Shown: in pieces, positions 12,126-51,171 of the stretch
How the letters are laid out: each line of letters starts with the position of its first letter
How positions within the stretch are numbered: position 1 is the stretch's first letter
Origin: Dehalococcoidia bacterium
GTDB taxonomy: Bacteria > Chloroflexota > Dehalococcoidia > Tepidiformales > Tepidiformaceae
Assembly (NCBI GenBank): GCA_020432105.1
Contig: JAGQGZ010000001.1
Location: 1 to 55,163, forward strand
Length of the DNA stretch: 55,163 nt
Reading direction: 5' to 3'
The notes under the pieces: generated by a model
What the model saw: only the letters and a program-made list of their open reading frames with translations
The model's database searches: none
What the model was told of the DNA's origin: nothing
Position numbers and translations under genes: made by a program

Positions 12126-12150
12126 CCACCGAATAGCGCACACCATTGGA

Positions 12151-12186
12151 GATGCCCGGCACCTGCTGCCGGGCATCTTTCGTTTT
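12151..12186 (+). terminator. rho-independent terminator
   Basis: A perfect 11-bp stem GATGCCCGGCA / TGCCGGGCATC with a 5-nt loop is followed by TTTCGTTTT. It lies 25 nt after the ACAD stop. Confidence 0.75.
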
Positions 12187-12210
12187 AGCAGGATCACCTA
12201 GACTTCCTCC

Positions 12211-13020
12211 GTGATTACGGTCCGGGCCTATGGGAACGCGGGGCCGCCGCTATTCGTCCTGCACGGCGGGCCGGGTGCGGCCGGCTACATGGCGCCCGTG
12301 GCGAGGAAGCTGGGTCGTGACTACCGTGTTTTCGAGCCGTTGCAGCGGCGGAGTGGCGATATCCCCCTCACGGTCGATCAGCACATCGCAGACCTGCACG
12401 AGGTAATCAAGGTGCACTGCCCGGGTGAACGGCCTGCACTCGTCGGGTCTTCCTGGGGAGCGATGCTGGCACTCGCGTCTGCTGCTGCGCACCCAGGGAC
12501 GTTCGGGCCACTGGTGCTCATCGGGTCCGGGACGTTCACGGACGAATCGAGTGCGGAGTTTCACCGCGTGCTCGATTCGCGCGCGGCCCCGGGTGTAGAC
12601 GACCGGATCCGCGCAGCCGCTGAAGCTACCGACCCGGACGCCGCACTCGCCGCTATCGCCAGCGATCTTGATGCGCCGTATTCTTTCGACCTTCTCGACA
12701 GCCGGTCGGACAACGAATGGGTGGATGCCAGGGGTAACAGGGAGACGAATGACGACTGGAGCCGGCGCCGAACTGCGGGTGAGTTTCCGGCGAGCTTTGC
12801 GGCAATCAAGCAACCGGTGCTGATGATCCACGGCGCCGTAGATCCCCATCCCGGGCCGATGATTCGCGATAGCCTGTTGCCGGTATTGCCCCGGCTTGAG
12901 TACGTGGAACTGGACCGCTGCGGTCACTATCCCTGGCGGGAGCGCTTCGCAAGGGATAGGTTCTACGAAGTCCTGAGGAGCTGGCTCGCGAAGCATCTGC
13001 CCGGGACGCCAGCGGCGTAG
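12211..13020 (+). CDS. alpha/beta hydrolase (S33 proline-iminopeptidase-like HGGPG motif)
   Basis: It has VLHGGPGAAG, the nucleophile elbow GSSWGA and a C-terminal CGHYPW. There is no clear SD before GTG 12211. Confidence 0.75.
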   Translation: MITVRAYGNAGPPLFVLHGGPGAAGYMAPVARKLGRDYRVFEPLQRRSGDIPLTVDQHIADLHEVIKVHCPGERPALVGSSWGAMLALASAAAHPGTFGPLVLIGSGTFTDESSAEFHRVLDSRAAPGVDDRIRAAAEATDPDAALAAIASDLDAPYSFDLLDSRSDNEWVDARGNRETNDDWSRRRTAGEFPASFAAIKQPVLMIHGAVDPHPGPMIRDSLLPVLPRLEYVELDRCGHYPWRERFARDRFYEVLRSWLAKHLPGTPAA

Positions 13021-13022
13021 AA

Positions 13023-13763
13023 TTGCGGACGATGCATCAACCGCTTGTCATCGGTCACGCCTGCGCGGGTGGAGAAGCGCCGCACAACACGCTGGCCGGT
13101 GTGCGAGCCTGCCTGGCGACTGGCGCCCAGGCCATGGAGATCGATGTTCAGCTCAGTGCTGATGGTATCCCGGTGCTCATGCACGACAACACCGTGGACC
13201 GCACGACCAACCTCAGCGGCCCCGTGTCGTCGTTTACGGCGGCCGAGTTGGCGAAGGCGGATGCCGGCGACGGCGAGAAGGTACCGACGCTGGCCGAGGT
13301 ACTCGACCTTGTGGATGGCCGGCTCACTGTACTCTGCGAACTGAAGCGGACAGAAGGCGAGGCCGCCCGCGATTCGGCCCTCGTCGATGCGGTGGTGGCA
13401 GCGGCGATCCGTCGTGGTAGCGAAGCCTGGACGGGCATCCATTCGTTCAATCTCGATATCGTCGAGCGAGCCCGGGCCCTGGCACCGGAGTTGTCCGCGG
13501 CAGTCATCTCGGGACCGGTCGAGGGTGAACGGCAGGACACGTTGTTCCACGGCGCACTTGTCCGCGGGGCACAGGCGATCTCGGTTCATCACAGTTGCAT
13601 TGATTCCGAGTTCGTTGTGGCGGCCAAGCGGCGTCAGCTCACCGTCTGGACCTGGACGCCGGACGAGGAAGCCGTATGGGAGCGCCTTGCCGAAACCGGT
13701 GTGGACGGCATCATCACCAACTACCCAACGAGGCTCACACGATTCCTGGCGAGCAGGCACTGA
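13023..13763 (+). CDS. glycerophosphodiester phosphodiesterase (GDPD) family
   Basis: It has VIGHACAGGEAPHNTL...MEIDVQLSADGIPVLMHDNTVDRTTN and a C-terminal GVDGIITNYP. The start is TTG 13023 or ATG 13032. Confidence 0.85.
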   Translation: MRTMHQPLVIGHACAGGEAPHNTLAGVRACLATGAQAMEIDVQLSADGIPVLMHDNTVDRTTNLSGPVSSFTAAELAKADAGDGEKVPTLAEVLDLVDGRLTVLCELKRTEGEAARDSALVDAVVAAAIRRGSEAWTGIHSFNLDIVERARALAPELSAAVISGPVEGERQDTLFHGALVRGAQAISVHHSCIDSEFVVAAKRRQLTVWTWTPDEEAVWERLAETGVDGIITNYPTRLTRFLASRH

Positions 13764-13851
13764 CTCGCAGGCCACCTGCCCACTGTGGCCCTTGACGACG
13801 GCGGAAGTCCCGGCGGCGGATAGCTCGCCGCTCGCTGCTTATACTTCGGGG

Positions 13852-16667: not shown

Positions 16668-17864
16668 ATGCGATTTGCCGACACACCCGAACTCGCCACG
16701 TGGCGAACGACGGTCCGCAGCTTCCTCGACGAACACTGGCACAGCACCGGTAGCGACGATGAGTCCGAAGCCGCAACGAGCATGGAGAACGAAGAGCAAT
16801 TCCAGGCACGGATGAAGCGCTCGCAGGCATGGCTCGACAAGCTGGGCGAGAATGGCTGGATCGCCCCGGCCTGGCCCAAGGAATATGGCGGCGCCGATAT
16901 GTCCGTGCTTGAGCAGTTCGTGCTGAGCCAGGAGCTGACCCAGGCGGGAGCGCCCACCAGCCGCCAGATGCTCAACCTTGTGGGCCCAACGATCATGCTC
17001 CACGGCACGGACGAGCAGAAAGCCGAACACCTTCCACCGATGCTCCGGGGCGAGGTGGCATGGTGCCAGGGCTTCAGCGAACCGGGCTCGGGTTCTGACC
17101 TTGCGAGCCTCCAGACCCGCGCCGTGCGCGACGGCGACGACTACGTGGTCAACGGCCAGAAGATCTGGACCAGCGGCGCTCACAGGGCGGACTGGATGTT
17201 CATGCTCGCCCGCACCGACCCGGATGCACCGAAGCACCGTGGGATTAGCTACCTGCTGATCAACATGAAGGACCCGGGCGTCTCCGTGAGGCCACTAATC
17301 AACATGCACGACGGCCACGTCTTCAACGAGGTCTTCTTCGAGGATGTGCGGGTGCCGGTGCGCAACCGGATCGGCGAGGAGAACCGCGGATGGTACGTCG
17401 GCACGACGACGCTTGACTTCGAGCGGTCGAACATTGCCCGGGTGGTGAACATCAAGAAGAGCCTGGCGAAGGTCCTCGACTACACTCAGGCCAGGGAGGT
17501 GAATGGCGAGGCGGTAGGCCGCCCGCAGCGGATGGAGCTCGCCGACCGAGCCGTCGAGACGGCTGTATGTGAGCTGCTTTCGTTCCAGGTCGTTTCCATC
17601 CAGGCGTCGGGTGGGGTGCCGAACATGGAAGCGAGCATGAACAAGATGTACGGGTCCGAATTGCAGCAGCGAGTGGCCCGCACCGCCATGAATATCACCG
17701 GTATGCGTGGCCAACTCCGCCAGCCCGAAGGTCTGGAGTCGGAACACGGAATCCAGGCGGCAATGAACTACCTTTCAACGGTGCCGGCGACGATCGCTGC
17801 AGGCACCAGCGAAATCCAGCGCAACATCATCGCCACTCGCGGCCTCGGTCTCCCGCGGGGCTGA
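16668..17864 (+). CDS. acyl-CoA dehydrogenase family protein (paralogue of 10971..12125)
   Basis: It has GFSEPGSGSDLASLQTRAVRDGDDYVVNGQKIWTSGA and IAAGTSEIQRNIIA. Long stretches are identical to the other ACAD. Confidence 0.9.
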   Translation: MRFADTPELATWRTTVRSFLDEHWHSTGSDDESEAATSMENEEQFQARMKRSQAWLDKLGENGWIAPAWPKEYGGADMSVLEQFVLSQELTQAGAPTSRQMLNLVGPTIMLHGTDEQKAEHLPPMLRGEVAWCQGFSEPGSGSDLASLQTRAVRDGDDYVVNGQKIWTSGAHRADWMFMLARTDPDAPKHRGISYLLINMKDPGVSVRPLINMHDGHVFNEVFFEDVRVPVRNRIGEENRGWYVGTTTLDFERSNIARVVNIKKSLAKVLDYTQAREVNGEAVGRPQRMELADRAVETAVCELLSFQVVSIQASGGVPNMEASMNKMYGSELQQRVARTAMNITGMRGQLRQPEGLESEHGIQAAMNYLSTVPATIAAGTSEIQRNIIATRGLGLPRG

Positions 17865-17882
17865 GTCGCGCGTCGTGAAATG

Positions 17883-17916
17883 AAAAAAGGGCGGCGCCAC
17901 TGGCGCCGCCCTTTTT
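17883..17916. terminator. bidirectional rho-independent terminator between convergent genes
   Basis: AAAAAA-GGGCGGCGCC-ACT-GGCGCCGCCC-TTTTT forms a perfect 10-bp GC stem with an A-tract on one side and a T-tract on the other. Confidence 0.85.
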
Positions 17917-17936
17917 CGTGTACCGGGGGTTGCCGG

Positions 17937-20201
17937 TTACGAGAGCTGGTTCAACTCCTCGACCACCCGGCGTGGCGAAATCGGGAGTTCGGTGAAGCGG
18001 TGGCCCGTCGCATCCTCAATCGCATTGGCGATTGCGGCGAGCGGCGGGACGATCGGTACTTCGCCTACCCCACGTACTCCGTACGGGTGGCCGGGGTTCG
18101 GTACTTCCACAACGATCGTCTCGATATAGGGAACATCGAGTGTGGTGGGCATCCGGTAGTCGAGGAAGCTCGAGTTCCGGAGGTGTCCTTCTTCGTCGTA
18201 GAAGTATTCCTCGTTCAGGGCCCAACCGATGCCCTGGACCACGCCACCCTGGATTTGCCCTTCGACGTAGGCCCGATGAATGGCCGTTCCCACGTCCTGG
18301 ACAGCTGTGTAGCGGAGGATCTCAACCTTGCCCGTCTCAGGGTCGACTTCGACGTCGACGATGTGGGTGGCGAAAGCGCCTCCCGCACCACGGGCGACCA
18401 GCGAGGCGGAACCGGTGATGGGACCGCCTGTGCGAGCCTGCTGGGCTGCCATCTCCTTGAAGGTCAGGGTCTTGGTCGAGTCTTTCTTGCAGTGGAGTTC
18501 GCCGTCGATGTAGTCGACATCGTCCTCGCTGCAGTTCCAGAGCTTCGCCGCCCGCTCGGCCATCTGCTTGCGGATGTTCATCCCCGCCTCGTAGGTGGCA
18601 AGGCCTGTCGCGAAGGTTACGCGGCTGCCGCCGGTGACGTCGTTGTGGGGGATGGAGTCGGTATCGGCAACGACCGGGCGGACGTCCTCGAAGGGGATCT
18701 GAAGGGTCTCGGCGAGCTGCATGGCAAGGGAGGCGCGAGTGCCTCCGATGTCGGTCGAGCCTTCGATGAGGTTAACGGTGCCGTCGGGGTTGACACCGGC
18801 GATGACCGATGACTGCATGCCTGCATTGAACCAGAACCCGGAAGCAACGCCGCGGCCGCGATTGGGGCCCTCGATGGGCGACTTCCAGTGGTCGCTTGCC
18901 AGCGCTGCCTGGACCGTCTCCTCGGCGCCGATGCGCGGGTGCGCCACCCCGTTGACCATCTTCACGCCTTCGCGCGAGCTATTCGAGTCGCGGAAGTTGA
19001 GCACATCGAGTTTGAGGGCCTTGCAGGCCTCGTCGATGGCCTGCTCGATGGCGAAAGCGGCCGCGGGGGCGCCGGGGGCCCGGTATGCGGCAACCTTTGG
19101 CTTGTTGACGACGACGTCGTACGCGTTGAGCCGGAAGTTCGGGACGTCGTAGGGCGAAAGCATCGTCATCGCACCGGCACCGACCGGTGATCCAGGGAAG
19201 GCGCCGGCCTCGTAGGCCATGGTCGCGTCCACGGCATGGATCTTGCCATCCTTGATGCCGAGCTTGATGTGGATGTAACTGCCGCTGGTGGGGCCGGTGG
19301 CCTCGAAGACGTCGGTGCGGTTCATCGAGATCTTGACCGGCTTGCCCGTCTTGCGTGAGAGGACCGCCGCTACGGGATCGAGATAGATCACCGTCTTGCC
19401 ACCAAAACCGCCGCCGATCTCCAGGGGCGTGACCCGGATCGACGAGAGCGGAACGGCGAGCACCTGGGAGGTGAGGGAGCGCACACCGAAGGCGCCCTGG
19501 GTGCTGGTGTAGATCTGAATTGTGTCGTCGGAGTTCCACATCGCCGTCGACGAATGCGGCTCGATGTAACCCTGGTGGACCATCCGCGTGCGGTACTCGC
19601 GGTCGACAACGTGGTCGGACTCGGCGAGCGCCTTTTCGACATCGCCATCTTCGAAACGGTTGTGCGAAGCGATGTTGCTGGGCTTGTCGCTGGTTTGGCC
19701 GCCCATCACCTTGGTGTGGCGATTCTCATCGAGTAGTGGTGCGTCTTCGCGCATGGCGTCGCGAACGTCGAGGACGGGCGGAAGCAATTCGTACTCGACC
19801 TTGATTGCACGCGCGGCGGCTTCTGCTTCGAAGTGGGACCGGGCGGCGACCGCAGCCACCGCGTGTCCGTGGTAGAGCACCTTGTCGTGAGCAAGGATGT
19901 TGCTGCTGAGTTCTTTCAGGTTGACCGCGGACTCGCCGATGGCTTCAACCTTGTCGGCTGCTGCCGGGAGGTCCGTGTGCGTGGCGACGGCCATGACACC
20001 GGGCATCTTCGCCGCCTCGCTGGTGTCAATCTTGATGACCCGGGCGTGAGCGTGAGGGCTGCGGAGGATAGCTCCGTAGAGCAACCCGGCGGGCTTGAAG
20101 TCCGCGGCGTAGCGGGCGGCGCCTGTGACCTTCTCCGCCCCGTCGGGACGAATTGGGCTGGTGCCGATGATCTTGTAGTCCGGGCGTTCGACTGTCGTCA
20201 T
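17937..20201 (-). CDS. xanthine dehydrogenase/aldehyde oxidase family molybdopterin-binding large subunit (CoxL-like, not a bona fide CODH)
   Basis: It has MTTVERPDYKIIGTSPIRPDGAEKVTGAARYAAD, EIGGGFGGK and AAYRAPGAP. GGAGG lies 8 nt before ATG 20201, and an ATGA overlap joins it to the upstream 2Fe-2S gene. Confidence 0.9.
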   Translation of the reverse strand: MTTVERPDYKIIGTSPIRPDGAEKVTGAARYAADFKPAGLLYGAILRSPHAHARVIKIDTSEAAKMPGVMAVATHTDLPAAADKVEAIGESAVNLKELSSNILAHDKVLYHGHAVAAVAARSHFEAEAAARAIKVEYELLPPVLDVRDAMREDAPLLDENRHTKVMGGQTSDKPSNIASHNRFEDGDVEKALAESDHVVDREYRTRMVHQGYIEPHSSTAMWNSDDTIQIYTSTQGAFGVRSLTSQVLAVPLSSIRVTPLEIGGGFGGKTVIYLDPVAAVLSRKTGKPVKISMNRTDVFEATGPTSGSYIHIKLGIKDGKIHAVDATMAYEAGAFPGSPVGAGAMTMLSPYDVPNFRLNAYDVVVNKPKVAAYRAPGAPAAAFAIEQAIDEACKALKLDVLNFRDSNSSREGVKMVNGVAHPRIGAEETVQAALASDHWKSPIEGPNRGRGVASGFWFNAGMQSSVIAGVNPDGTVNLIEGSTDIGGTRASLAMQLAETLQIPFEDVRPVVADTDSIPHNDVTGGSRVTFATGLATYEAGMNIRKQMAERAAKLWNCSEDDVDYIDGELHCKKDSTKTLTFKEMAAQQARTGGPITGSASLVARGAGGAFATHIVDVEVDPETGKVEILRYTAVQDVGTAIHRAYVEGQIQGGVVQGIGWALNEEYFYDEEGHLRNSSFLDYRMPTTLDVPYIETIVVEVPNPGHPYGVRGVGEVPIVPPLAAIANAIEDATGHRFTELPISPRRVVEELNQLS

Positions 20202-30345: not shown

Positions 30346-31080
30346 GTGGTAGAGCTGGCTTCTTTGCCCGCCCCGGCCCTTCTCTTTGAGCGGCTTCAGA
30401 TCAAGCCGCTATCTGGCGAACTCCTCGTCGAAACGCTCACCCATGCCTCATACGTCAACGAATCCGACTCGACGGCGCGGTCGAATGACCGGCTGGAGTT
30501 CCTCGGCGACGCGATCCTGGGCATGGTGGTCGCCAACGAGCTCTTCCTGGCGCTGCCAGACGCGGGAGAAGGTGACCTGACGCGCATGCGGGCGAGCATT
30601 GTGCGGGGTAGTTCGCTGGCCGAAGTCGCCCGCAGGTTCGAACTCGGCCTCCACCTGATTCTCGGGAAGGGCGAAGAGGCTGCCGGTGGCCGCGACCGGG
30701 ATTCGAACCTCGCCGACATGGTCGAGGCACTGGTCGGCGCGGTCTATGTCGAACACGGGTGGCGGCAGGCCCAGGCGCTCGCCCGGCGCCTGTTGAAGGA
30801 GGAATTGGCTGACGTGCTTTCGTCGGGCGTTCCGCTCGATCCGAAGTCTCACCTGCAGCACCTCGTCCAGGCGCGGTGGCACGAACAGCCCGAATATGTG
30901 ACGGTGGACGATGATCCCGGCGATTCTGCCGCACGGTTCACAGTCGAGGTGAGAATCCGTGGCCAATTGCTGGGAGCTGGCCGGGGGTCGGCGAAGCGGG
31001 AGGCGCAGGAACGCGCCGCCCGGGTCGCCATTCGGGCCCTGGTAGAACGTGGCGGGGACGGGGGCAAAGCGTGTACTTGA
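30346..31080 (+). CDS. rnc: ribonuclease III
   Basis: It has LTHASYVNE...NDRLEFLGDAILG (RNase III signature) and a C-terminal dsRBD (GSAKREAQERAARVAI). Confidence 0.9.
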   Translation: MVELASLPAPALLFERLQIKPLSGELLVETLTHASYVNESDSTARSNDRLEFLGDAILGMVVANELFLALPDAGEGDLTRMRASIVRGSSLAEVARRFELGLHLILGKGEEAAGGRDRDSNLADMVEALVGAVYVEHGWRQAQALARRLLKEELADVLSSGVPLDPKSHLQHLVQARWHEQPEYVTVDDDPGDSAARFTVEVRIRGQLLGAGRGSAKREAQERAARVAIRALVERGGDGGKACT

Positions 31081-34000
31081 AGCGGCTCGCCGTCCAGGGC
31101 TTCAAGAGTTTCCCGGAGCGGACGACGTTCGAGTTCGGCCCTGGAATCACCGCGATCGTCGGTCCCAACGGCTCAGGCAAGAGCAACGTCTCCGATGCGA
31201 TTCGCTGGGTGCTGGGCGAACAGAGTTTCCGCAACCTCCGGGCGAAGAAAGCCGAAGATGTGATCTTCGCCGGCACCTCGTCCCGGTCGCCCGTGGGCAT
31301 GGCGGAAGCCATCCTCACGCTGGACAACGAAGATCGCTGGTTGCCGATCGACTTCGCCGAGGTCGAAATCGGACGCCGTGTGTATCGAAGCGGTGAGTCT
31401 GAATACCTGCTGAACGGGTCACGGGTGCGGCTGCGTGATCTCTCTGACCTGCTGATGAAGGCGGACGTCGGACAGAACAGCTACACGATTATGGGTCAGG
31501 GGCTCGTCGACGAGGTGCTCTCGATGTCGCCGGAACAGCGGCGGGTGTTCCTCGATGAAGCTGCCGACGTGAAGCGCTTCCGCATGCGGATCACGGAGGC
31601 GCTGCGTCGTCTCGAGGCGACCCGGGACAACATCGCCCGCGTGGACCTCGTTCTCAATGAGCTACGACCACGCCTCGCGCAGCTCGAACGGCAGGCTGGC
31701 CGCGCCGCGGAGCACGCAAAGCTATCGGCTGAGCTTACGGAGTTGCTCAAGCTCTTCTACGGCCAGCGATGGGCCGATGCCCAGAACGCGTTGACGCGGG
31801 CAATGGCAGCACTGGATCAGCGTGTGGAAGCGAACCAGGAGGCCGAGCAGCGCGTTACCCAGCTGCGAGAACAGATAACGGCCCTGGGCGACGAGATTCG
31901 GCGGCGACGAGAAGCAATTTCGCGGCGCGACACGCGTTCGAATGAGTTCGCCCAGCGTCTTTCGTCGCTGGAACAAAACCTGGACCTGGACCGTGAACGG
32001 CACGCCATGCTCTCGGGCCGCCGTGAGGAATTGCGGATCGAGTTGGAGGCGCTCGAGACGGAGCGGCTGAGCCTCGACACCACCGATGTCGACGAAGGGC
32101 GCCGGGGGATGGAAGTGGGTGAACAGGAGGAGGTGGCGAGGGAAGCCGCGGTGTTGACGCGGAGGCGATTGGACGAAGCCGAGCGCGCCTACGGGATTGC
32201 CCGCGCAAGAGCCCAGGAGCTTCGTGAAGGGGCGGAAGCCGATGAGCGCAGGCTGGGCTCGTTCCAGGCCGAGATGGAAGCAGCGCGACGCCGGATTGCT
32301 GAACTCGAACAGGAGCATGAGCAGTTCGATGCCCGGCGTAAGCAGTCACTGGTGGAGCTGATTGGCTACGGGCGCAAGTACCGGGAGATCAAGGCTGAGC
32401 TCGTCACCGCGGAGGCCACGCTGGCTGCCGCCCGTGGTGAAGCCGACCAGGCTCGGCAACGATTGCAACGAGTACAGGATGAAGTGCGTCGCTACGAATC
32501 GGCGGGCAACGAGGAGCTTCGTGAGCTGGACCGCCTGGAAGGGCGCCTGGATGCGCTGCGGAGAGTCCAGGCCGAACACGACGGCATCGCCGTGGGCACG
32601 CGCCAGTCGCTGATCATGGGGCAGGCGCTGCTCGATGAGGTGCAGCCCGGGTCGCTGGGAGAGGCGCCTGAAATCGAAGGGGTTGTCGGGCTTCTCTCAC
32701 GCCAGATCCGCGTCCCTTCAGGCCTCGAGACGGCAATCAATGCGGCTCTTGAAAATCGCCTGCACTCGGTCATCGTTCGGGAGGAGACCCAGGTACTGAA
32801 GGCGATCAACCTGCTGCGCCAGCGTGGCCATGGGCGCGCCCAGTTCATCCCGCTGGATTCGATCCGCCATGTCTATCCGCTCAACCTGCAGAAGGAGCGT
32901 GGCGTCGTCGGAGTAGCGAGCAAGCTGGTTCGCTGCGAGGGCGAATTCCGCAATCTCCTCGACACCTTGCTTGGCCGGATCATCGTTGTGGAAGACATGG
33001 AAGCCGGGATGCGCATGATCAGCCGCTCGCTCGGTTCGGTGGTGACGCTCGACGGTACGTTCATCGAGCCAACCGGGGTGGTCAGCGGCGGGTCGGCGGG
33101 AACGGATGAGACGGTGTTTTCTCGCCAGAGAGAGCTGGAGGAGCTTCCAGAACGCATTGCCGAACTACGCGAGCGAACCGACCGCAGCCAGGAACGACTT
33201 GAAACGGCGCGAGATTCGCTGGAGCAACTTGTGATCTCAGCGCGTGAAGCAGACAGCCGCTACGACGACCTCCGCAAGACGGGTGATACATCTCGCGTGA
33301 ATCTCGAGCGCGAGCGCCAGAAGCTGCACCGGATTCGCCGTGACCTCGACAGCCTTGTATCGCGGCGTGAGGGGCTCGAACGCGACCAGGTTGAATTGCA
33401 GCAGCGGTACGAGACCGCGCGCGCGGGCATGGCCGAGCTGGAGACGCGGCGAACTGACCGTCGTGCCGACATGCAGCGGGCAGAAGAAGAGGTCACGCGG
33501 ACTACGGAGGAACGGGAGTCGGCGATACGAGCGGTGGCGGAAGCCAGCGGCCGGCTGGCGTCTGTGGAGGGCGAGCGTAAAGCCCTGCAGATGCTGCGCG
33601 AACAGCACGACAAGGCCAAAGAGCGCATTGCCAGCCAGATGACCGCCCGGACCGCGCAGGCCCAGAATTTCGAGGCCGAAGCGACGGCCGTGAGCGAACG
33701 AATTGCCCGCTTGCAGAGCCAGCTGGAAGGGCTGCGTGTCGAGCAGGCACACGCCACCGATGATGTGGCGCCCGACCTGGATGAGCTGCACCGCTTCGAA
33801 ACCCACGAGCGGCAGGTACAGGACGAGCTGGGTGCAGCACATGCCGCCCTGCTGGATGCGGAACGGGCCCGCCTGGATGCTGAAACCGGTGTAGGCCGGG
33901 CTCGCGAACGGCTCGACGTTCTACGCGAGGAGATGGCCCGGGAGGGACTGGGACCGAACGAGGACGGCTCTATCGTGCCGGTCGATGAAGCTTCTCCCCC

Positions 34001-34757
34001 GGAAGAGCCGGTTGAGACCGGGGAAGAACCCTCCGCCACAGAGGAGACCGAGGATCCGGTCGCGGCACCGCGAGTCTCGGGCGCCACCGAAGTCGATCTG
34101 GACGAGATCAGGGTGCGGATAGACGATGTCAGGCGTCAGATCCGGCGGCTTGGGCCGATCAATGAGGAAGCCCCCGGAGACTACGAAGAGAGCAAGGAGC
34201 GGTACGAGTTCCTGACGGGCCAGTTAGAGGACCTGACCCAGGCGGAGGCCCAGTTGCGCTCGGTGATCCATGACCTGCAGGGTGAAATCAAGACGCGTTT
34301 CGATGCCGCGTTTGTGACGGTGAACGAGGCGTTCGGCAAGTACTTCACGTCGTTCTTTGGTGGTGGCAAGGCATCGCTGGCGTTGACCGATCCGGAGGAC
34401 TCGACCGATTCGGGCATCGAAATCACGGCCCAGCCGCCGGGGAAGCGGATCGAGTCGCTGAGCTTGCTTTCAGGGGGCGAGCGCTCACTGACGGCGGTGG
34501 CGCTGCTCTTCGCCCTTCTCGCGGCTAACCCTGCCCCGTTCTGCGTGCTCGATGAAGTTGATGCAGCACTCGACGAGGCGAACGTCGGCCGCTTTGCCGA
34601 TTCGCTGAGTGCACTTTCCGAGAAGACGCAGTTCATTACCGTGACCCACAACCGGCGAACGGTGGAAGCGGCCGACGCCATTTACGGTGTGTCGATGGCC
34701 CGCGACGGTGTTTCCCAGGTCCTTTCGCTCAAACTTTCGGACCTGCCGAAGACGTAG
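31071..34757 (+). CDS. smc: chromosome segregation protein SMC
   Basis: It begins MYLKRLAVQGFKSF and has Walker A GPNGSGKSN, long coiled coils, a hinge, the signature LSGGE and Walker B FCVLDEVDAALD. It overlaps rnc by 10 nt. Confidence 0.95.
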   Translation: MYLKRLAVQGFKSFPERTTFEFGPGITAIVGPNGSGKSNVSDAIRWVLGEQSFRNLRAKKAEDVIFAGTSSRSPVGMAEAILTLDNEDRWLPIDFAEVEIGRRVYRSGESEYLLNGSRVRLRDLSDLLMKADVGQNSYTIMGQGLVDEVLSMSPEQRRVFLDEAADVKRFRMRITEALRRLEATRDNIARVDLVLNELRPRLAQLERQAGRAAEHAKLSAELTELLKLFYGQRWADAQNALTRAMAALDQRVEANQEAEQRVTQLREQITALGDEIRRRREAISRRDTRSNEFAQRLSSLEQNLDLDRERHAMLSGRREELRIELEALETERLSLDTTDVDEGRRGMEVGEQEEVAREAAVLTRRRLDEAERAYGIARARAQELREGAEADERRLGSFQAEMEAARRRIAELEQEHEQFDARRKQSLVELIGYGRKYREIKAELVTAEATLAAARGEADQARQRLQRVQDEVRRYESAGNEELRELDRLEGRLDALRRVQAEHDGIAVGTRQSLIMGQALLDEVQPGSLGEAPEIEGVVGLLSRQIRVPSGLETAINAALENRLHSVIVREETQVLKAINLLRQRGHGRAQFIPLDSIRHVYPLNLQKERGVVGVASKLVRCEGEFRNLLDTLLGRIIVVEDMEAGMRMISRSLGSVVTLDGTFIEPTGVVSGGSAGTDETVFSRQRELEELPERIAELRERTDRSQERLETARDSLEQLVISAREADSRYDDLRKTGDTSRVNLERERQKLHRIRRDLDSLVSRREGLERDQVELQQRYETARAGMAELETRRTDRRADMQRAEEEVTRTTEERESAIRAVAEASGRLASVEGERKALQMLREQHDKAKERIASQMTARTAQAQNFEAEATAVSERIARLQSQLEGLRVEQAHATDDVAPDLDELHRFETHERQVQDELGAAHAALLDAERARLDAETGVGRARERLDVLREEMAREGLGPNEDGSIVPVDEASPPEEPVETGEEPSATEETEDPVAAPRVSGATEVDLDEIRVRIDDVRRQIRRLGPINEEAPGDYEESKERYEFLTGQLEDLTQAEAQLRSVIHDLQGEIKTRFDAAFVTVNEAFGKYFTSFFGGGKASLALTDPEDSTDSGIEITAQPPGKRIESLSLLSGGERSLTAVALLFALLAANPAPFCVLDEVDAALDEANVGRFADSLSALSEKTQFITVTHNRRTVEAADAIYGVSMARDGVSQVLSLKLSDLPKT

Positions 34758-44421: not shown

Positions 44422-46908
44422 TCAGTTTGGTGGCGCTCTTCGCTCCATGATTGTTACCGTCCCTGCGGCGCCGTCGATATGGACGAGGTCGCCGGTTCGA
44501 ATGGTTCGGGTGCCGTGGTGGACGTTGACGACTGCGGGGAGGCCGTACTCGCGGGCGATGGTGCTTCCGTGGCTGAGTGCGCTGCCGATGTCCACAACGA
44601 GGCCCACGGCGAGGCCGAATAGGGGTGTCCAGCCGGCGTCCGTAACCGGCGCCACAAGGATTTCGCCCGGCTGGATACCATCGTCGATCGCCGGGTCGCG
44701 GATGACGCGGGCTCGGGCCGTGACCGACCTCGCACTCACCGCCATCCCTGTGAGGACGGTACCGTCCGAGGACGAGGCAGGAGGTAGCGGCGTGGGATGG
44801 CCCCGGAACCGTTCCGGCAGGTCGATATAGCGATTACGTTCCATCTCCTTGCGCCGGCGTGCGACCGTGGTCTGATGGCTGTTTGCCACATCGGTTCCCG
44901 CGAGGATGTCGAGCAATTCCTCGTAGCTAAGGAAGAAGACGTCCTCGACATCGGAGATAATTCCACGCTCGACACACCGGCGGGCGCATTCCTCGATCAG
45001 CGGGTCGGACATGCGGGCGGACCGGACGATGATGGACTTGGTCCGTTCGCGCAGTGCTACGAAGTCCTGGGCATCGCGCAGGAAACGATTGTAGAGCGGC
45101 CGCACGAGCCATCCGATATCGCGGCGAAGGTCCTCAGTGAGGGCGAGGCGAGCAGTCTCCTGGCGTTCAAGGGTGGCCAGAGGCGACTGTTCCACGGGGA
45201 GGTCGAGGTATCCGCGCACCGCGGCAATCACCGGCGAAGGGTCGCTTCGCCAGGTCCGCGTGGAGGCCTCCATTTCGCGCATGCCACGGTGCCCGTGTGC
45301 CCGAAGAAAGGAGCGGTACGCGGCCCGCCATTCGGGTGGCAGCGCCTCTGACCGGGGGTCGACTGAATCATCGCGGAGAGCCGGGCCGATCCCTGTATTG
45401 AGAGCCACCCGCGAGAGATTCCAAATGTCGATGCCGATACGTGCGCTTTCGACATTCTTGAGACCGGTGAGGAGCGTGGGGATTGCCGATTCCGATCGCT
45501 CATCCCCGAGACGGGTCCGGAGCAGGCGTTCGAGGTTCGTGTAGGCCGCTGAGGCAAGGCCGCTGATGTGGAGGTGATGGGCAAAGGCGCGGCCGCTGAT
45601 TTCCTCGCCCGAGAGCAGAAGTGACCGCAACGCGGCATCGGAGCAGTCCCCCGTCGCAAGGGTGAGTCGTTTTCGCTCTGCCTGGCGCACTTCTCGCTCA
45701 AATCGCTCGGTGCGTGTCCGGGCGCCGAAAAGGAGCCGGCCGAGAGGTACCAGGCTACCGGCCATGAAGCGTGCCCGTTTCCGCAGCGGCTCGGAAGGGA
45801 GATCCGCCGTCGCCTCGCCACCGAGGAACTGGATCTCCACACCATCACCGCTGGCGCCGAGAGCCCGCGCACCCAGCATCCTCGTTGTTCCAACGTTGAG
45901 GAAGGCACGGTTGTAGAAGAAGGCAATCCACGGCGGTGACTCGTCCCTGGCGATGAGTCCGAGCCGCTGATAGCCCCGGACGAAGGCCGCCTGGCTGCTC
46001 CGCGTTCCGGTAGACATGGAGAGCGGCGTGAGGAGTCCAGGGAGCACCTCCTGGATATTCGCACTCGTCCACAACTCGTCGGGTCCGGTCGGCGTGTCGA
46101 ACTCGCTGGCCCAGCCGGTGGCGGCAGAATCAGCCGCTGGGGCGGTGGTGGTGATCGGGCGCGATTGGAGTAGCCAGAGCACACCGTCGCGGTCGAATGC
46201 GTACTCGATGTCCTGCTCGCTGCCGAAGAGTTCGGCACAGGCACGTGCCGCAGCCGCAACCTCTATAGCCTGCCTGTCCGTGAGCACCGGCTCACCCGGC
46301 GACTCGCGTTCGACGAGGTGCCCCTCGCGCGTGAGCACGATGTTTTCGGCCTGGGCCAGTCCGCTCACCAGCAACTCGCCCGGTCCCGCTACCGCTTCGA
46401 CCACGATGTGGCCGGGATGGCGACCGGTGGGGTCGTCGGTGAAGGCCACTCCGGCAGCAACCGCATCGACCATGCGCTGCACCACCACGGCCATAGCCGC
46501 CTGGTCGTCGGCTGTGGCCAGGTACCGATAGGCGGTTGCGGACTCGGCATGGAGCGATGCGAGGCAGGTCGCTACGGCTTCGCGGGCAGCTTCGAGGGTG
46601 GGTACGTTCAGGACGGTTTGGTGCTGACCGGCGAACGAAGCATCGCTGGCATCTTCGCCCGTGGCCGAGGAGCGTACGGCAACGGTGCTGCCATCTCCGA
46701 TGAGGCCGTCGCATGCGGAGGCGAAAGCTGATGCGATTTCGGGAGGCCAGGGTTTCCCTTCGGTCAGCGCAGCCGTCGCCATGGTCGTCAGCACGAAACC
46801 GGATGGTACCTGCTTCCCGGCCCGGACCAGCGCATCGAGAGCGTTGCCCTTGCCACCAAGAAGGGCGGCGCCGGCAGGACCATCGCCAAGCACATGAATG
46901 AAGGTCAT
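44422..46908 (-). CDS. PEP-utilising enzyme family protein with rifampin-phosphotransferase-like architecture (ATP-grasp N-domain, long middle domain, C-terminal swivel His domain)
   Basis: The N-terminus is LLGGKGNALDALVRAGKQVPSGFVLT. The C-terminal motif ILVAPVTDAGWTPLF...DIGSALSHGSTIAREYGLPAVV lies ~45 aa from the end, and no PEP/pyruvate TIM-barrel domain follows. The start at ATG 46908 was chosen by N-terminal alignment logic. Confidence 0.8.
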   Translation of the reverse strand: MTFIHVLGDGPAGAALLGGKGNALDALVRAGKQVPSGFVLTTMATAALTEGKPWPPEIASAFASACDGLIGDGSTVAVRSSATGEDASDASFAGQHQTVLNVPTLEAAREAVATCLASLHAESATAYRYLATADDQAAMAVVVQRMVDAVAAGVAFTDDPTGRHPGHIVVEAVAGPGELLVSGLAQAENIVLTREGHLVERESPGEPVLTDRQAIEVAAAARACAELFGSEQDIEYAFDRDGVLWLLQSRPITTTAPAADSAATGWASEFDTPTGPDELWTSANIQEVLPGLLTPLSMSTGTRSSQAAFVRGYQRLGLIARDESPPWIAFFYNRAFLNVGTTRMLGARALGASGDGVEIQFLGGEATADLPSEPLRKRARFMAGSLVPLGRLLFGARTRTERFEREVRQAERKRLTLATGDCSDAALRSLLLSGEEISGRAFAHHLHISGLASAAYTNLERLLRTRLGDERSESAIPTLLTGLKNVESARIGIDIWNLSRVALNTGIGPALRDDSVDPRSEALPPEWRAAYRSFLRAHGHRGMREMEASTRTWRSDPSPVIAAVRGYLDLPVEQSPLATLERQETARLALTEDLRRDIGWLVRPLYNRFLRDAQDFVALRERTKSIIVRSARMSDPLIEECARRCVERGIISDVEDVFFLSYEELLDILAGTDVANSHQTTVARRRKEMERNRYIDLPERFRGHPTPLPPASSSDGTVLTGMAVSARSVTARARVIRDPAIDDGIQPGEILVAPVTDAGWTPLFGLAVGLVVDIGSALSHGSTIAREYGLPAVVNVHHGTRTIRTGDLVHIDGAAGTVTIMERRAPPN

Positions 46909-46944
46909 CCGCGAAGGGTAGCGACTTCCGGAGCTTGTCAAAAC

Positions 46945-46958
46945 AGAACACATGTTCT
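46945..46958. promoter_or_regulatory. LexA (SOS) box of the Gram-positive/Cheo type within a divergent promoter region
   Basis: AGAACACATGTTCT is a perfect GAAC-N4-GTTC palindrome. It sits between a -35-like TTGTCA (46935-46940) and a -10-like TAGCGT (46958-46963) with 17-nt spacing. It lies 36 nt upstream of ATG 46994 and 38 nt upstream of the divergent gene's start at 46908. Confidence 0.7.
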
Positions 46959-46993
46959 AGCGTGATCGGACTGCATACCACGGAGGTACGGCC

Positions 46994-47845
46994 ATGCGCC
47001 TGCTCTGTCTCGACTTCCCCACGCTCCCAATCGCACTTGTGCGGAGAGCGCATCCCCACCTTTCGGAGCGACCGATAGTCCTCCTGGCAGGCCCCGGTGC
47101 GGATGCACCGGTGACCGCCGCATCGCCTGCCGCTATCACGCGCGGAGTGATCCCGGGGATGCCCGCGGTTGCCGCGCGCGGCCGCTGTGCCTCGGCCATG
47201 TTCCTGCCGGAGAATCCTGGCGCGTGTGTGGATGAATTGGAGCGCATTGCAAGTATCATCGCGAAATACGCGACACTTTCTGTCGCGATAACGTCGCAGA
47301 CTCGGATCATGATCGATGTTACGACCGTCAACGACGAAGTACGGATGGGTGAGCGGTTGGCGTCACTCGCCCGGCAATGGACTGGTCTCGAGGTTCGGGC
47401 GGGTGTTGGTTCTTCCCGGTCACAGGCCGAGGATGCCGCAACCCTGGTTCGCCGGGGCGTGGCGATCGACACACGTCCCGCAGGCGAAGATGAACCACCG
47501 CCGCAGGCGATGCAGCCGTTGACCGGGCGGGTCACACTTCGCGGCGAGCCTGATGATGATCAGCGCCGGTTGCGGGGCCTCATTGCCCGGCTTGCCCGGC
47601 TCCAGGACAGCCTGGGACAGGCCTGTCGCGAGGTCACGCTGCGCATGGTTGCCGACGACCTGGTAATGCGTCGCAGGCTCCGGTTCGATCGGCCCACCGG
47701 GGTGTTGGAGGCGCAGGACCGGATCGAGGCGGCCGTGAGTACGGTCCCGGTTGAAGGCCCGGTAGTCCTGGAACTTGAACTTGGACGGCCTGCGCCGCTA
47801 CTGCTTGCCACGCGATATCGCGAGGCGCTTGCAACGGCAGTGTGA
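46994..47845 (+). CDS. short ImuB-like Y-family DNA polymerase paralogue (probably non-catalytic)
   Basis: GGAGG lies 7 nt upstream. MRLLCLDFPTLPIALVRR...PIVLL...AAITRGVIPGMPAVAARGRC...IMIDVTT follows the ImuB/DinB palm-fingers pattern. The conserved D-E pair reads D-V, as in ImuB. It is only 283 aa. Confidence 0.6.
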   Translation: MRLLCLDFPTLPIALVRRAHPHLSERPIVLLAGPGADAPVTAASPAAITRGVIPGMPAVAARGRCASAMFLPENPGACVDELERIASIIAKYATLSVAITSQTRIMIDVTTVNDEVRMGERLASLARQWTGLEVRAGVGSSRSQAEDAATLVRRGVAIDTRPAGEDEPPPQAMQPLTGRVTLRGEPDDDQRRLRGLIARLARLQDSLGQACREVTLRMVADDLVMRRRLRFDRPTGVLEAQDRIEAAVSTVPVEGPVVLELELGRPAPLLLATRYREALATAV

Positions 47846-47932
47846 GGACTCAGGTCTGCTAAGAGTGGCCTGTTAGAATTGGGTGACAGCCGATCCGCCG
47901 GACCGGCCACTTCACCTGACAGGACCCACCAT

Positions 47933-50644
47933 ATGACCGCGCCATCGTCTCGCACGCAGCTACCCCCTGCTTACGAGCCGAAGGAAGTAGAAGGCCGCAT
48001 CTATGAGATGTGGCGCGAGGCCGGTTATTTCCAGCCCCGTGGCGCCGGTAACCCCTACTGCATCATCATGCCGCCGCCAAACGTGACGGGTGAACTCCAC
48101 CTTGGTCATGGTCTCGAAGATGCCCTGACGGACACGCTTGTGCGCTGGCACCGGATGCGTGGAGATCGTGTGCTGTGGGTCCCCGGCGAAGACCATGCCG
48201 GTATCGCCACCCAGAACGTCATCGAACGGGAACTTGCCCGGGAGGGGCTCTCGCGCCATGACATCGGCCGCGAGGCCTTTGTCGAACGAACCTGGATGTG
48301 GGTTCGCAAGTATCGCTCCCGGATTGCCGAGCAGCATGCCAGGCTCGGAGCAAGCGCCGACTGGGAACGCGATGTTTTCACGCTCGACCCGGCGATCGTG
48401 AAGGCCGTACGGACGACGTTCGTGAATCTCTATCGCGACGGGCTCATTTATCGCGGCCTGCGAATGATTAACTGGTGTCCGCGCTGCGAGACTGCGTTGA
48501 GCGATCTCGAGGTCGACTACGAGGAGGAGCAGGCAAAGCTCTACTACCTCCGGTACCCAATGATGGGCGAGGGTGGGATGCCGCTCCCCGACCACGTGAT
48601 TGTCGCAACGACGCGGCCGGAGACGATGCTCGGCGATACGGCGGTGGCGGTGAACCCCAGGGACGAGCGCTATGAGAGCAAGATCGGCCGGATGCTCGGG
48701 TTGCCGCTCGTGGGCCGGGAGATCCCGGTCGTGCCCGACGATTCTGTGTCGATGGAGTTCGGTACCGGCGCGGTGAAGGTGACCCCGGGGCATGACCCGA
48801 ACGACTGGGAGATCGGTCAGCGCCACGACCTGCCGGCGATCGTCGTGCTCGATCGCAATGCGGTGCTCAATGAGGAGGCCGGGCCCTACGAAGGACTGAG
48901 CGTGGAGGCCGGCAGGGCCGCAGTGCTACGTGACCTCGACGAAGGGGGCTTCCTCGACAGGGTCGAGGACTACACGCACTCAGTCGGCAAATGCAGCCGC
49001 TGCAAGACGCACGTTCAGCCGATCCCGAGCGAGCAGTGGTGGGTGGATGTCCACAAGGAGTACCTGCCCGGCCGGTCACTTTCGAGTGCCGCCGCCGAAG
49101 CTGTCCGCCAGGGGCACATCCGCATCGTCCCGCAGCGATTCGAGAAGGTGTACCTGAACTGGATGGATAACATCCGTGACTGGTGTGTCAGCCGCCAGCT
49201 CTGGTGGGGTCACCAGATCCCCGTGTGGTACTGCGATTGTGGCGAGATCATCGCGGCGATCGAAGACCCGGCGGCCTGTCCGAAGTGCGGCTCCTCGGAG
49301 CTGAGGCAGGACGAAGACGTGCTCGACACCTGGTTCTCCAGTGGTCTCGCCCCCCACGCGGACCTTGGTTGGCCGGACGAAGATGCCGAAGATCTGCGGA
49401 CGTACTACCCGACCAATGACATCCAGATGGGCTACGACATCATGTTCTTCTGGTGCGCCCGGATGATCATGCTCGGGCTGTACAACATGCAGGATCGCGG
49501 TTTCGAAGAGTCGGTTCCCTTCCGCAATGTCCTCTTCCACGGCCTCATCCGCGACAGCAACGGCGAGAAGATGACGAAGTCGCGGGGGAACGTCGTCGAT
49601 CCGCTGCTGTCAGCCGGACAGTACGGTGCCGATGCGTTCCGCTTCGGCCTGTTGACGGGCGCCACCCTCGGTGCCGACCAGCGCTACAGCGATGATCGCC
49701 TGACATCGGCGCGCAATTTCGCCAACAAGCTCTGGAACAGCGCTCGCTTCGTGCTCCAGAAGCTCGACGGTTTGCCGGTTAAGGCGCCTCACCCGCTCGA
49801 TCGCGAGTCGATGGCGCTTGAGGACCGCTGGATCCTCTCGCGGCTGGAACAGCTTGCGCAAGATGTAGATTCACTCCTCACATCGTTCCAGGTGGGGGAG
49901 GCCGGCCGTTACATCGAGGACTTTCTCTGGAATGAATTCTGCGACTGGTATATCGAATTTGCGAAGGTTCGACTGACTGCCGGAGACGACTCACCGAAAG
50001 CGGTCCTGGCCTATGTCCTCGACTACGGCCTTCGGTTGCTGCACCCGATCATGCCGTTTGTGACCGAGGAGCTCTGGCAAAACCTCCGGGGCCACCTCGG
50101 CAGCGATATGCCCGACCAGCTCATCGTGGCCTGGTACCCCCGGAGCGGCGGCAACTGGAAGGACGCTGCATCGGAAGCGGCGATGGCACACGTCATCGAA
50201 GTGAACCGAACGATCCGCAACCTTCGCACGGAAAACCGCCTTGAGGCTGGCGCCCGGCCGGAAGTGATCCTGCGTGCCGGGGCGATGGCGGACGCGTTGC
50301 GAGCGACGGCCGGGGCAACGGAGTTCACCTCACGGGTGACGCTGACGGTGACTGCGGCCGATGCCACCATGCCCGAAGCGGAATACGCCTTCGGCCGGGT
50401 GGGAGACACGGAGGTAGCGGTTACGCTTCCGCAGGTCGATTCGGATGCTGAGATCGCAAGGCTTCAGAAGGAACTCGACGAGGCTGAGGTGTACATTGGC
50501 CGCCTCGAAGCTCAGCTTGGCAATGCGCAGTTCCGGGACAAGGCACCGGCGAAAGTGGTCGAGGGTGTTGAGCACAACCGCGACGAAGCGAGGCAGCGTG
50601 CGTCGGGCCTCCGTGAGCGGATCGAGAGCCTGAAGCAGGCGTAA
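47933..50644 (+). CDS. valS: valine--tRNA ligase
   Basis: It has HIGH motif PPPNVTGELHLGH, KMSKS motif EKMTKSRGN and a C-terminal coiled coil. The ORF-track start at 47879 is an upstream extension. Confidence 0.95.
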   Translation: MTAPSSRTQLPPAYEPKEVEGRIYEMWREAGYFQPRGAGNPYCIIMPPPNVTGELHLGHGLEDALTDTLVRWHRMRGDRVLWVPGEDHAGIATQNVIERELAREGLSRHDIGREAFVERTWMWVRKYRSRIAEQHARLGASADWERDVFTLDPAIVKAVRTTFVNLYRDGLIYRGLRMINWCPRCETALSDLEVDYEEEQAKLYYLRYPMMGEGGMPLPDHVIVATTRPETMLGDTAVAVNPRDERYESKIGRMLGLPLVGREIPVVPDDSVSMEFGTGAVKVTPGHDPNDWEIGQRHDLPAIVVLDRNAVLNEEAGPYEGLSVEAGRAAVLRDLDEGGFLDRVEDYTHSVGKCSRCKTHVQPIPSEQWWVDVHKEYLPGRSLSSAAAEAVRQGHIRIVPQRFEKVYLNWMDNIRDWCVSRQLWWGHQIPVWYCDCGEIIAAIEDPAACPKCGSSELRQDEDVLDTWFSSGLAPHADLGWPDEDAEDLRTYYPTNDIQMGYDIMFFWCARMIMLGLYNMQDRGFEESVPFRNVLFHGLIRDSNGEKMTKSRGNVVDPLLSAGQYGADAFRFGLLTGATLGADQRYSDDRLTSARNFANKLWNSARFVLQKLDGLPVKAPHPLDRESMALEDRWILSRLEQLAQDVDSLLTSFQVGEAGRYIEDFLWNEFCDWYIEFAKVRLTAGDDSPKAVLAYVLDYGLRLLHPIMPFVTEELWQNLRGHLGSDMPDQLIVAWYPRSGGNWKDAASEAAMAHVIEVNRTIRNLRTENRLEAGARPEVILRAGAMADALRATAGATEFTSRVTLTVTAADATMPEAEYAFGRVGDTEVAVTLPQVDSDAEIARLQKELDEAEVYIGRLEAQLGNAQFRDKAPAKVVEGVEHNRDEARQRASGLRERIESLKQA

Positions 50645-50646
50645 GG

Positions 50647-51171
50647 ATGCTGAACCCGGAGATCGAGGTGCTGCTCGGCCGCGCTGCTACCGCCAGGTTC
50701 CAGTTGTGGTCACTCGTCGCAGTGCTCGAGGACGGGCACTTTGACCAGCGTGCAGAGGGCGATACCTGGTCGGTTCGTGAGCATTTGGCGCACGTTGCGG
50801 CCGTGGATCGGGTAACCGTGGAAATGGTGGAAGCACTGGCGGGCCCGAGGCTGGACCTTTCGCCGTTCCTGGCGCTGCGAGAGCGGCGACGGCTGGACGC
50901 ACTGGCAGACCCGGGCGGCGTGCAGGCAGCGGCCCCACATGCGCGTGAGGTGGTCGTGGAGCGACTGAGGTCGTTAAGTCCGGAGCTGCTCTCTATCGAG
51001 GTGGTGCTTCCGGCGCGAGACGCGTGGTCGGCCCCCGTTTCGATGCAGCTACGAAGCTACCTTGCCGAGTGGGCAAGCCACGACACGCATCACGAGGCCG
51101 CGATCCGCGAGGCCGTGCGGACGAGCATCAGCCCGGCGGCGCTGGCCCTGGCCGCCCGGTCGCGGCGGTAG
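50647..51171 (+). CDS. DinB family protein
   Basis: It has WSVREHLAHVAAVD ... ASHDTHHEAAIREA (a DinB-type His triad pattern). It lies 2 nt after the valS stop. Confidence 0.75.
   Translation: MLNPEIEVLLGRAATARFQLWSLVAVLEDGHFDQRAEGDTWSVREHLAHVAAVDRVTVEMVEALAGPRLDLSPFLALRERRRLDALADPGGVQAAAPHAREVVVERLRSLSPELLSIEVVLPARDAWSAPVSMQLRSYLAEWASHDTHHEAAIREAVRTSISPAALALAARSRR

Follow-up and report, generated by a model that had tools for sequence, protein, structure and literature searches.

LexA of Bacillus subtilis (DinR) and of other Gram-positive bacteria recognizes the Cheo box, a palindrome of the form GAAC-N4-GTTC, which is the described LexA motif of B. subtilis and Mycobacterium tuberculosis and, by extension, of Gram-positive bacteria (PMC3323433). 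[quoted passage not shown] The locus described here lies in a stretch of 55,163 bases from a Dehalococcoidia bacterium of the phylum Chloroflexota (contig JAGQGZ010000001.1), referred to below as the window. An earlier note on this stretch had read the 14-mer AGAACACATGTTCT as a Cheo-type LexA box in the promoter region of a gene for an ImuB-like protein. The gene is called mini-imuB here and its product mini-ImuB. On the other side of the box, a divergent gene encodes an RPH-like enzyme of the phosphoenolpyruvate (PEP)-utilising type.

The window site resembles the Cheo box in its GAAC-N4-GTTC arms and their spacing, in its AT-rich purine-N-N-pyrimidine core, in its overlap with the core promoter, and in having a target gene of the translesion-synthesis type. 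The two differ in their flanks, which are C/G in the Cheo box and A/T here (TAGAAC...GTTCTA). For B. subtilis LexA, the optimum is CGAACATATGTTCG; several orthologs of mini-imuB carry exactly GAACATATGTTC. A further departure from the canonical arrangement is seen at the lexA promoter of the class Chloroflexia, discussed below.

Direct reading of the window confirmed the palindrome AGAAC-ACAT-GTTCT with perfect GAAC and GTTC arms, embedded in the sequence ...ggagcTTGTCAaaacAGAACACATGTTCTAGCGTgatcgg...cacGGAGGtacggccATG (coordinates are collected in Table 1). The box lies inside the 17-nucleotide (nt) spacer (46941-46957) that separates the putative -35 hexamer TTGTCA from the putative -10 hexamer TAGCGT, and its final T doubles as the first T of the latter. 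It stands 36 nt upstream of the mini-imuB ATG, and the intergenic region between the divergent starts at 46908 and 46994 measures 85 nt. Both starts were reproduced by independent gene calls on ten metagenome contigs, and every position and spacing that the earlier note had given for the box, the two hexamers and the intergenic region proved correct.

Taken by itself, the lone site in the window is not beyond chance. GAAC-N4-GTTC has one match in the 55,163 bases against 0.68 expected, and at least one match occurred in 45 of 100 shuffled sequences. Near-matches with up to two mismatches show no excess either (8 found, 13.5 expected). A reading of the palindrome as a chance match in an AT-rich promoter spacer, without any regulatory role, is compatible with these counts; the evidence against it comes from orthologous loci.

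Orthologs of mini-imuB were collected from a scan of GTDB genomes (11 loci) and a scan of JGI metagenomes (19 loci), and the footprint set comprised 32 orthologous loci with readable upstream sequence, representing 27 distinct sequences. The carriers are metagenome-assembled genomes (MAGs) labelled as uncultured Chloroflexia, Dehalococcoidia, Tepidiformaceae and Anaerolineaceae, in addition to metagenomes. The box is kept in all 32 loci, 38-48 nt before the ATG, between a -35 element of the TTGAC type and a -10 element of the form TAnTnT. Thirty of these boxes are perfect, and the remaining two (L029 and L031, identical in sequence) carry one mismatch, GCAC for GAAC. Column counts over the distinct sequences show no change at the eight bases of the two arms in 26 of the 27, and an A directly before the box in 25. 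The T and A that follow GTTC never change among the 27, and they are also the first two bases of the -10 hexamer. Within the core, the first position is a purine (A/G) in 26 sequences and the fourth a pyrimidine (C/T) in every one. Variation is free at the two middle core bases, in the 6-7 nt between the -35 element and the box, and everywhere beyond the promoter. Protein identity among the mini-imuB orthologs falls to approximately 31-35%, so bases under no constraint have had time to randomise. Furthermore, across about 404 kb of ortholog loci, nearly all matches to AGAAC-N4-GTTCT with at most one mismatch are the mini-imuB promoter site itself.

It is because of this conservation that the window site is beyond chance. 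The chance reading is already contradicted by arms that stay invariant in 26 of the 27 distinct sequences while the adjoining spacer positions vary, and the motif is also found at promoters of an unrelated second set, those of imuB-dnaE2; we regard the chance reading as extremely improbable. As judged from these comparisons, we are dealing with a genuine operator of the type that LexA binds, and the reading given in the earlier note is in this respect supported. The genes around mini-imuB differ from locus to locus, with an RPH-like gene, a subtilase, an FKBP gene or a methyltransferase upstream and valS, a CoA-transferase, a diaminopimelate (DAP) epimerase or a serine-acetyltransferase-like gene downstream. 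As the box stays constant while its neighbours change, it is expected to be the operator of a trans-acting, global regulator rather than of a local one.

The second set of promoters belongs to the canonical imuB genes of Chloroflexota. These lie directly upstream of dnaE2 and encode full-length ImuB proteins of 460-500 residues with IMS, IMS_C (PF11799) and DUF6504 (PF20114) domains. Five distinct cassette promoters (L047, L048, L049/L050, L051/L052 and L053) each hold the sole GAAC-N4-GTTC match of their locus of approximately 13-21 kb. Their layout is TTGACA-N17-TA[T/A]AAT followed at once by TAGAAC-N4-GTTCTA, with the box abutting the -10 hexamer. The presence of one and the same motif at mini-imuB and at imuB-dnaE2 promoters is regulon-level evidence for LexA. 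These cassettes, which are of the Anaerolineae type, have near-consensus promoters and no adjacent imuA.

The protein that binds the site is most probably the LexA of this Chloroflexota bacterium, an assignment that is well supported and unproven. The box lies in the spacer of what would be a sigma-70-type promoter, with its last base shared with the start of the -10 hexamer; if the assignment is correct, a LexA dimer there would keep RNA polymerase from using the promoter. Damage to the DNA would lead RecA to stimulate the self-cleavage of LexA, which would free the operator and allow mini-imuB to be expressed. We infer in this scheme LexA as the binder, the predicted hexamers as the real promoter, and the damage-inducibility of mini-imuB. 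The regulation is ordinary SOS logic, and the unusual part is the target gene.

Several observations weigh against this assignment. The promoter hexamers in the window have 8 of 12 matches to consensus, which is under the threshold of the promoter scanner, so that no promoter was called there, and the -10 hexamer TAGCGT is weak. Searches with tblastn for LexA and RecA returned nothing in 240 kb and then in 404 kb of ortholog loci, and a LexA profile search of 692 kb of loci likewise found no LexA. Finally, the sole Chloroflexota lexA promoter examined, of the Roseiflexus type, has no perfect GAAC-N4-GTTC and carries two half-site repeats in a different arrangement, raising the possibility that LexA specificity may not be uniform across Chloroflexota. 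Searches of plasmids with the B. subtilis and Roseiflexus-type queries gave no Chloroflexota LexA, and those of viral contigs gave distant LexA relatives only. The literature searched had nothing specific on the LexA motif of Chloroflexota.

A protein search with a query 89% identical to the LexA of Roseiflexus sp. RS-1 recovered LexA proteins of Chloroflexota. The lexA locus of this type (L054, where positions 9890-9985 lie upstream of lexA at 10001-10657; the same in L055-L063) has the promoter TTGACA-AGAACAGGTGTGTTATGT-CATAAT, with a box of two mismatches, AGAACAGGTGTGTT, in the spacer between the -35 and -10 hexamers. The leader holds two everted repeats of the form GTTC-N4-GAAC, GTTCTATCGAAC and GTTCTGTGGAAC, 21 bp apart. 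With just five occurrences of this form across 572 kb of loci, two of them within 33 nt are not due to chance. The repeats share the half-site of the Cheo box in a different arrangement, and they resemble the LexA motif of Verrucomicrobia, which is reportedly TGTTC-N4-GAACA. This suggests that the class Chloroflexia uses a different arrangement of the LexA half-site. Roseiflexus belongs to another class than most carriers of mini-imuB, so LexA binding in the lineage of the window is neither confirmed nor refuted by this promoter. It is on account of this promoter, which lacks a perfect box, that the LexA assignment is not stated more firmly.

The same promoter is also an argument for an alternative, namely that the translesion-synthesis genes of Chloroflexota are controlled by a regulator other than LexA, such as a dimeric helix-turn-helix repressor with a GAAC-type half-site. 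A lexA promoter that lacks the canonical box and has GTTC-N4-GAAC twice would fit this explanation, as would the recognition-helix region of the Chloroflexia-type LexA (SSTSVVAYNL), which is unlike the SSSTVHGHL of B. subtilis. Against it, the arms, the spacing and the R...Y core of the motif are those of the Cheo box, and the LexA of Dehalococcoides ethenogenes (Chloroflexi) is reported to bind exactly GAAC-N4-GTTC. The motif also precedes both mini-imuB and the canonical imuB-dnaE2 genes, and for the latter LexA is the sole regulator described (PMC3323433). In addition, no gene for a candidate regulator accompanies the box at the mini-imuB and imuB-dnaE2 loci examined. In combination, a non-LexA regulator is judged improbable, and LexA remains the preferred binder.

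The target gene is related to imuB and distinct from it. The earlier note had called the gene ImuB-like, and this holds. The sole Pfam match of the protein is IMS, the N-terminal domain of Y-family polymerases (residues 7-145, E 2e-14), and NCBIfam gave weak matches to DNA polymerase IV, far under the cut-offs. An AlphaFold2 model predicted from a 5-sequence alignment (predicted local distance difference test, pLDDT, 86; predicted template modelling score, pTM, 0.75) consists of a palm and fingers (residues 1-158), a non-helical linker of about 17 residues, and a beta-alpha-beta-beta-alpha-beta domain (176-265). Foldseek matched the whole chain to Dbh, Dpo4 and DinB, which were the top matches, and to M. 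smegmatis Dpo4, Rev1, and Pol kappa or iota, with E values from 1e-18 to 1e-14, and a profile search against the PDB returned DNA polymerase IV (E 5e-13). In the profile alignment to the M. smegmatis enzyme, residues 14-153 pair with 16-155, and residues 174-266 then pair weakly with 240-334. Given this jump from 155 to 240, the helix-hairpin-helix thumb (approximately residues 156-239 of the polymerase) is missing and a little-finger-like domain is kept. In the model, some 20 non-helical residues occupy the position expected for the thumb.

At the position of the first catalytic aspartate, aligned by eye to Dpo4, the window protein has D7, while D, E, Y, F, W or L are found there across the family. 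By alignment, the two positions of the catalytic D-E pair (WDEAYL in M. smegmatis) hold T-R in the window protein, against mostly D-H in the other family members. From these residues, the catalytic carboxylates are lost and mini-ImuB is predicted to be inactive. The extreme C-terminus (residues 275-283 in the window protein) is conserved over its last 5-8 residues, with L279 and A282 invariant; endings in the family include LLRAAG, LRRAS and LATAV, in some members QMLLRAAG or QLLLRAAS. No clear beta-clamp motif (QL[SD]LF or QLxLxL) was seen among the aligned family members, and the conserved tail may serve as a docking peptide. The tail falls in a low-confidence region of the model.

With the ImuB of the cassette, mini-ImuB shares the dead Y-family fold and the N-terminus MRLLCLxFPxLP, and its closest database relatives are ImuB proteins. 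Unlike the cassette gene, mini-imuB stands alone, and its product has approximately 300 residues instead of 460-550. In addition to the thumb, it lacks the C-terminal region of ImuB: the IMS_C and DUF6504 domains of full-length Chloroflexota ImuB were not detected by Pfam. This C-terminal region is the part of ImuB that is reported to bind DnaE2 and ImuA'. Neither dnaE2 nor imuA was found within 10 kb of mini-imuB in the window and the orthologous loci examined. A designation as canonical imuB was rejected, as tests of domain content and of dnaE2 linkage both failed, and the product is named ImuB-like, not ImuB. The argument of the earlier note that motif and gene support each other is therefore one about a relative of imuB, without thumb, ImuB C-terminal region or nearby dnaE2 and imuA, and not about imuB itself. 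We read mini-ImuB as most likely a damage-induced, non-catalytic accessory or regulator of translesion synthesis that would derive from ImuB.

A word-index protein search for mini-ImuB found only four relatives, and an exhaustive search of representative proteins with the 5-sequence alignment found 62 clusters (50% identity) at E <= 1e-30, nearly all of 280-314 residues and matched over their full length. Below these, there is a sharp drop to E values of 1e-15 to 1e-8, where proteins of mostly ~160-550 residues match over their first ~150 residues. This pattern shows mini-ImuB to be a discrete family of inactive Y-family proteins of 280-316 residues. Those of the distant relatives that carry a name are annotated as 'protein ImuB' or as 'DNA polymerase Y family protein'. 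Seven of the relatives were read (P0082, P0085, P0087, P0097, P0130, P0168 and P0141) and have an ImuB-type N-terminus, M-R/W-V-A/V-C-...-P-x-L-P-V, and no D-x-D catalytic motif. The nearest relatives of mini-ImuB are ImuB-type proteins. A literature search found no description of a short ImuB or of such a family.

The divergent gene has the three-part architecture of RPH, with an ATP-grasp/PPDK_N domain, Rph_4th and the PEP-utilizers swivel domain, and is accordingly classed by domain content as RPH-like. Its product scores 265 bits against the rifamycin phosphotransferase model NF041857, for which the cut-off is 999, and the models for RedH, PigC (prodigiosin ligases) and PEP synthase score it as well or better, all below their own cut-offs. 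In 18 of the 32 loci, mini-imuB has a divergent RPH-like neighbour, whose protein is 45-69% identical to the window copy. None was found beside mini-imuB at the remaining 14 loci, a few of them short contigs; the box is present in all, and being kept without this neighbour, it belongs to mini-imuB.

Read on the minus strand, the intergenic region is AGAAC...GTTCT-gtt-TTGACA-N15-TACCCT-tcgcgg-ATG, which would provide the RPH-like gene with a promoter of its own. Its putative -35 element, TTGACA, is a perfect hexamer. Only 6 nt separate the putative -10 element TACCCT from the ATG, which would imply a leaderless mRNA. In the form TAC[C/A/T]CT, this -10 element is found at 13 of the 15 distinct loci that have a divergent RPH-like gene, and at none of the 10 that have none. 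In two clades, that of the window and that of L022/L034/L036/L037/L038, it stays 15-16 nt away from the shared -35 element, with anything from 6 to ~70 nt between it and the RPH-like ATG. This spacing behaviour fits a promoter element.

The earlier note had raised the possibility that the RPH-like gene is SOS-controlled as well; one operator would then serve both divergent genes. In the two clades, a minus-strand TTGACA or TTGTCA overlaps the mini-imuB -35 hexamer and lies 3-4 nt from the box (3 nt in the window), so a LexA dimer would sit 3-4 bp from the RPH-like -35, and co-repression is sterically plausible in these two clades. The tracking of TAC[C/A/T]CT with the RPH-like gene and the preserved divergent pairing also speak for shared control, as does a precedent in Escherichia coli, where one SOS box is common to the divergent uvrA and ssb genes. 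As in that system, a single LexA-type box occupies a short region between divergent genes; here, however, the predicted -35 hexamer of one strand overlaps that of the other, and the product of the second gene is a metabolic or antibiotic-kinase-like PEP-utilising enzyme. Yet the box is equally conserved in loci where no RPH-like neighbour was found, it is 36 to 97 nt away from the RPH-like start depending on the locus, and outside the two clades 37-50 nt lie between the -10-like element and the box, with no overlap of -35 elements. Moreover, a 15-nt spacer is poor for sigma-70, and a repressor upstream of a -35 hexamer need not repress. To our knowledge, no SOS control has been described for the RPH-like enzyme family. 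Shared control is an extension of the LexA reading that we hold as possible and tentative. In the window clade, the same bound repressor may also dampen the RPH-like promoter.

Downstream of mini-imuB, valS follows after a gap of 87 nt (47846-47932) in which there is no terminator-like hairpin. It has an extended -10 element of its own, and probably its own promoter, which would place it outside the regulated unit. A gene of the DinB_2 superfamily, a damage-inducible family by name, lies at 50647-51171 and starts 2 nt after the valS stop codon; its ortholog also directly follows valS in L014 and L015.

No other SOS genes or boxes were found in the window, where polA, smc, valS and metabolic genes are present, and a DNA record that extends the 3' end of the window holds no SOS gene. 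Neither smc (31071-34757) nor polA (13387-16596), which encodes DNA polymerase I with a 5'-3' exonuclease domain, has an upstream box. The window has a G+C content of 63.8%, no Rfam family and no tRNA gene. A role of the palindrome in RNA was rejected, since the box lies upstream of both predicted transcription starts. In L024, a Tepidiformaceae MAG, mini-imuB is found near a gene for a bacterial type IB topoisomerase (11559-12791) and a long gene for a RecQ-family helicase with HRDC and HTH_40 domains (16668-20123), neither of which has a box.

Table 1. Positions of the operator, predicted promoter elements and genes in the window, and of operator-bearing promoters at Chloroflexota imuB-dnaE2 loci.
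Feature	Sequence	Coordinates	Strand	Remarks
Operator, Cheo-type SOS box (predicted)	window	46945..46958	.	family consensus [T/C]AGAAC-RNNY-GTTCTA; based on conservation and imuB-dnaE2 promoters
Putative -35 of mini-imuB, TTGTCA	window	46935..46940	+	TTGAC or TTGNC in the orthologs at this offset; predicted
Putative -10 of mini-imuB, TAGCGT	window	46958..46963	+	T, A and final T invariant in 27/27 orthologous sequences (TAnTnT)
Shine-Dalgarno of mini-imuB, GGAGG	window	46982..46986	+	GGAGG or GGAG-like sequence at the same place in most orthologs
Mini ImuB-like gene, 283 residues	window	46994..47845	+	inactive Y-family palm/fingers and little-finger-like domain (predicted); no thumb, no ImuB C-terminal region
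RPH-like PEP-utilising enzyme gene, 828 residues	window	44422..46908	-	PPDK_N, Rph_4th and PEP-utilizers domains
Putative -10 of RPH-like gene, TACCCT	window	46915..46920	-	ends 6 nt before ATG
Putative -35 of RPH-like gene, TTGACA	window	46936..46941	-	shares bases with the mini-imuB -35 of the other strand; 3 nt separate it from the box
valS (valine--tRNA ligase)	window	47933..50644	+	downstream neighbour; own extended -10 TGtTAGAAT at 47871-47879
imuB-dnaE2 cassette promoter	L047	7147		TTGACA-N17-TAAAAT-AGAACATATGTTCTA
imuB-dnaE2 cassette promoter	L048	9915		TATAAT-AGAACATATGTTCTA
imuB-dnaE2 cassette promoter	L049, L050	L049 9954		TATAAT-AGAACAAACGTTCTA
imuB-dnaE2 cassette promoter	L051, L052	L051 9954		TATAAT-AGAACAGACGTTCTA
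imuB-dnaE2 cassette promoter	L053	9954		TATAAT-AGAACAAAGGTTCTA

In its widest form, the proposal is that Chloroflexota carry an SOS-controlled, thumb-less and dead mini-ImuB of approximately 300 residues that has not been described before, that acts as a new accessory or regulator of translesion synthesis, and that in part of the phylum is co-regulated with an RPH-like, PEP-dependent kinase through one LexA box and overlapping -35 hexamers. As a whole, with all of its parts, this proposal is doubtful. If it is true, the RPH-like enzyme family would enter a DNA-damage regulon for the first time.

For the phylum, the rule that LexA represses mutagenesis genes through GAAC-N4-GTTC would be extended to the poorly studied and mostly uncultured Chloroflexota, and the 27 distinct mini-imuB sites together with the five imuB-dnaE2 sites are a basis for a phylum-specific search matrix. 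The possible co-control of the RPH-like gene and the half-site arrangement at the Chloroflexia lexA promoter are leads on the content of the SOS regulon and on the evolution of LexA specificity. The more interesting product is mini-imuB itself, a moderately novel target gene, whose promoter-operator module is kept in every ortholog examined and would mark it as a core damage-inducible gene.

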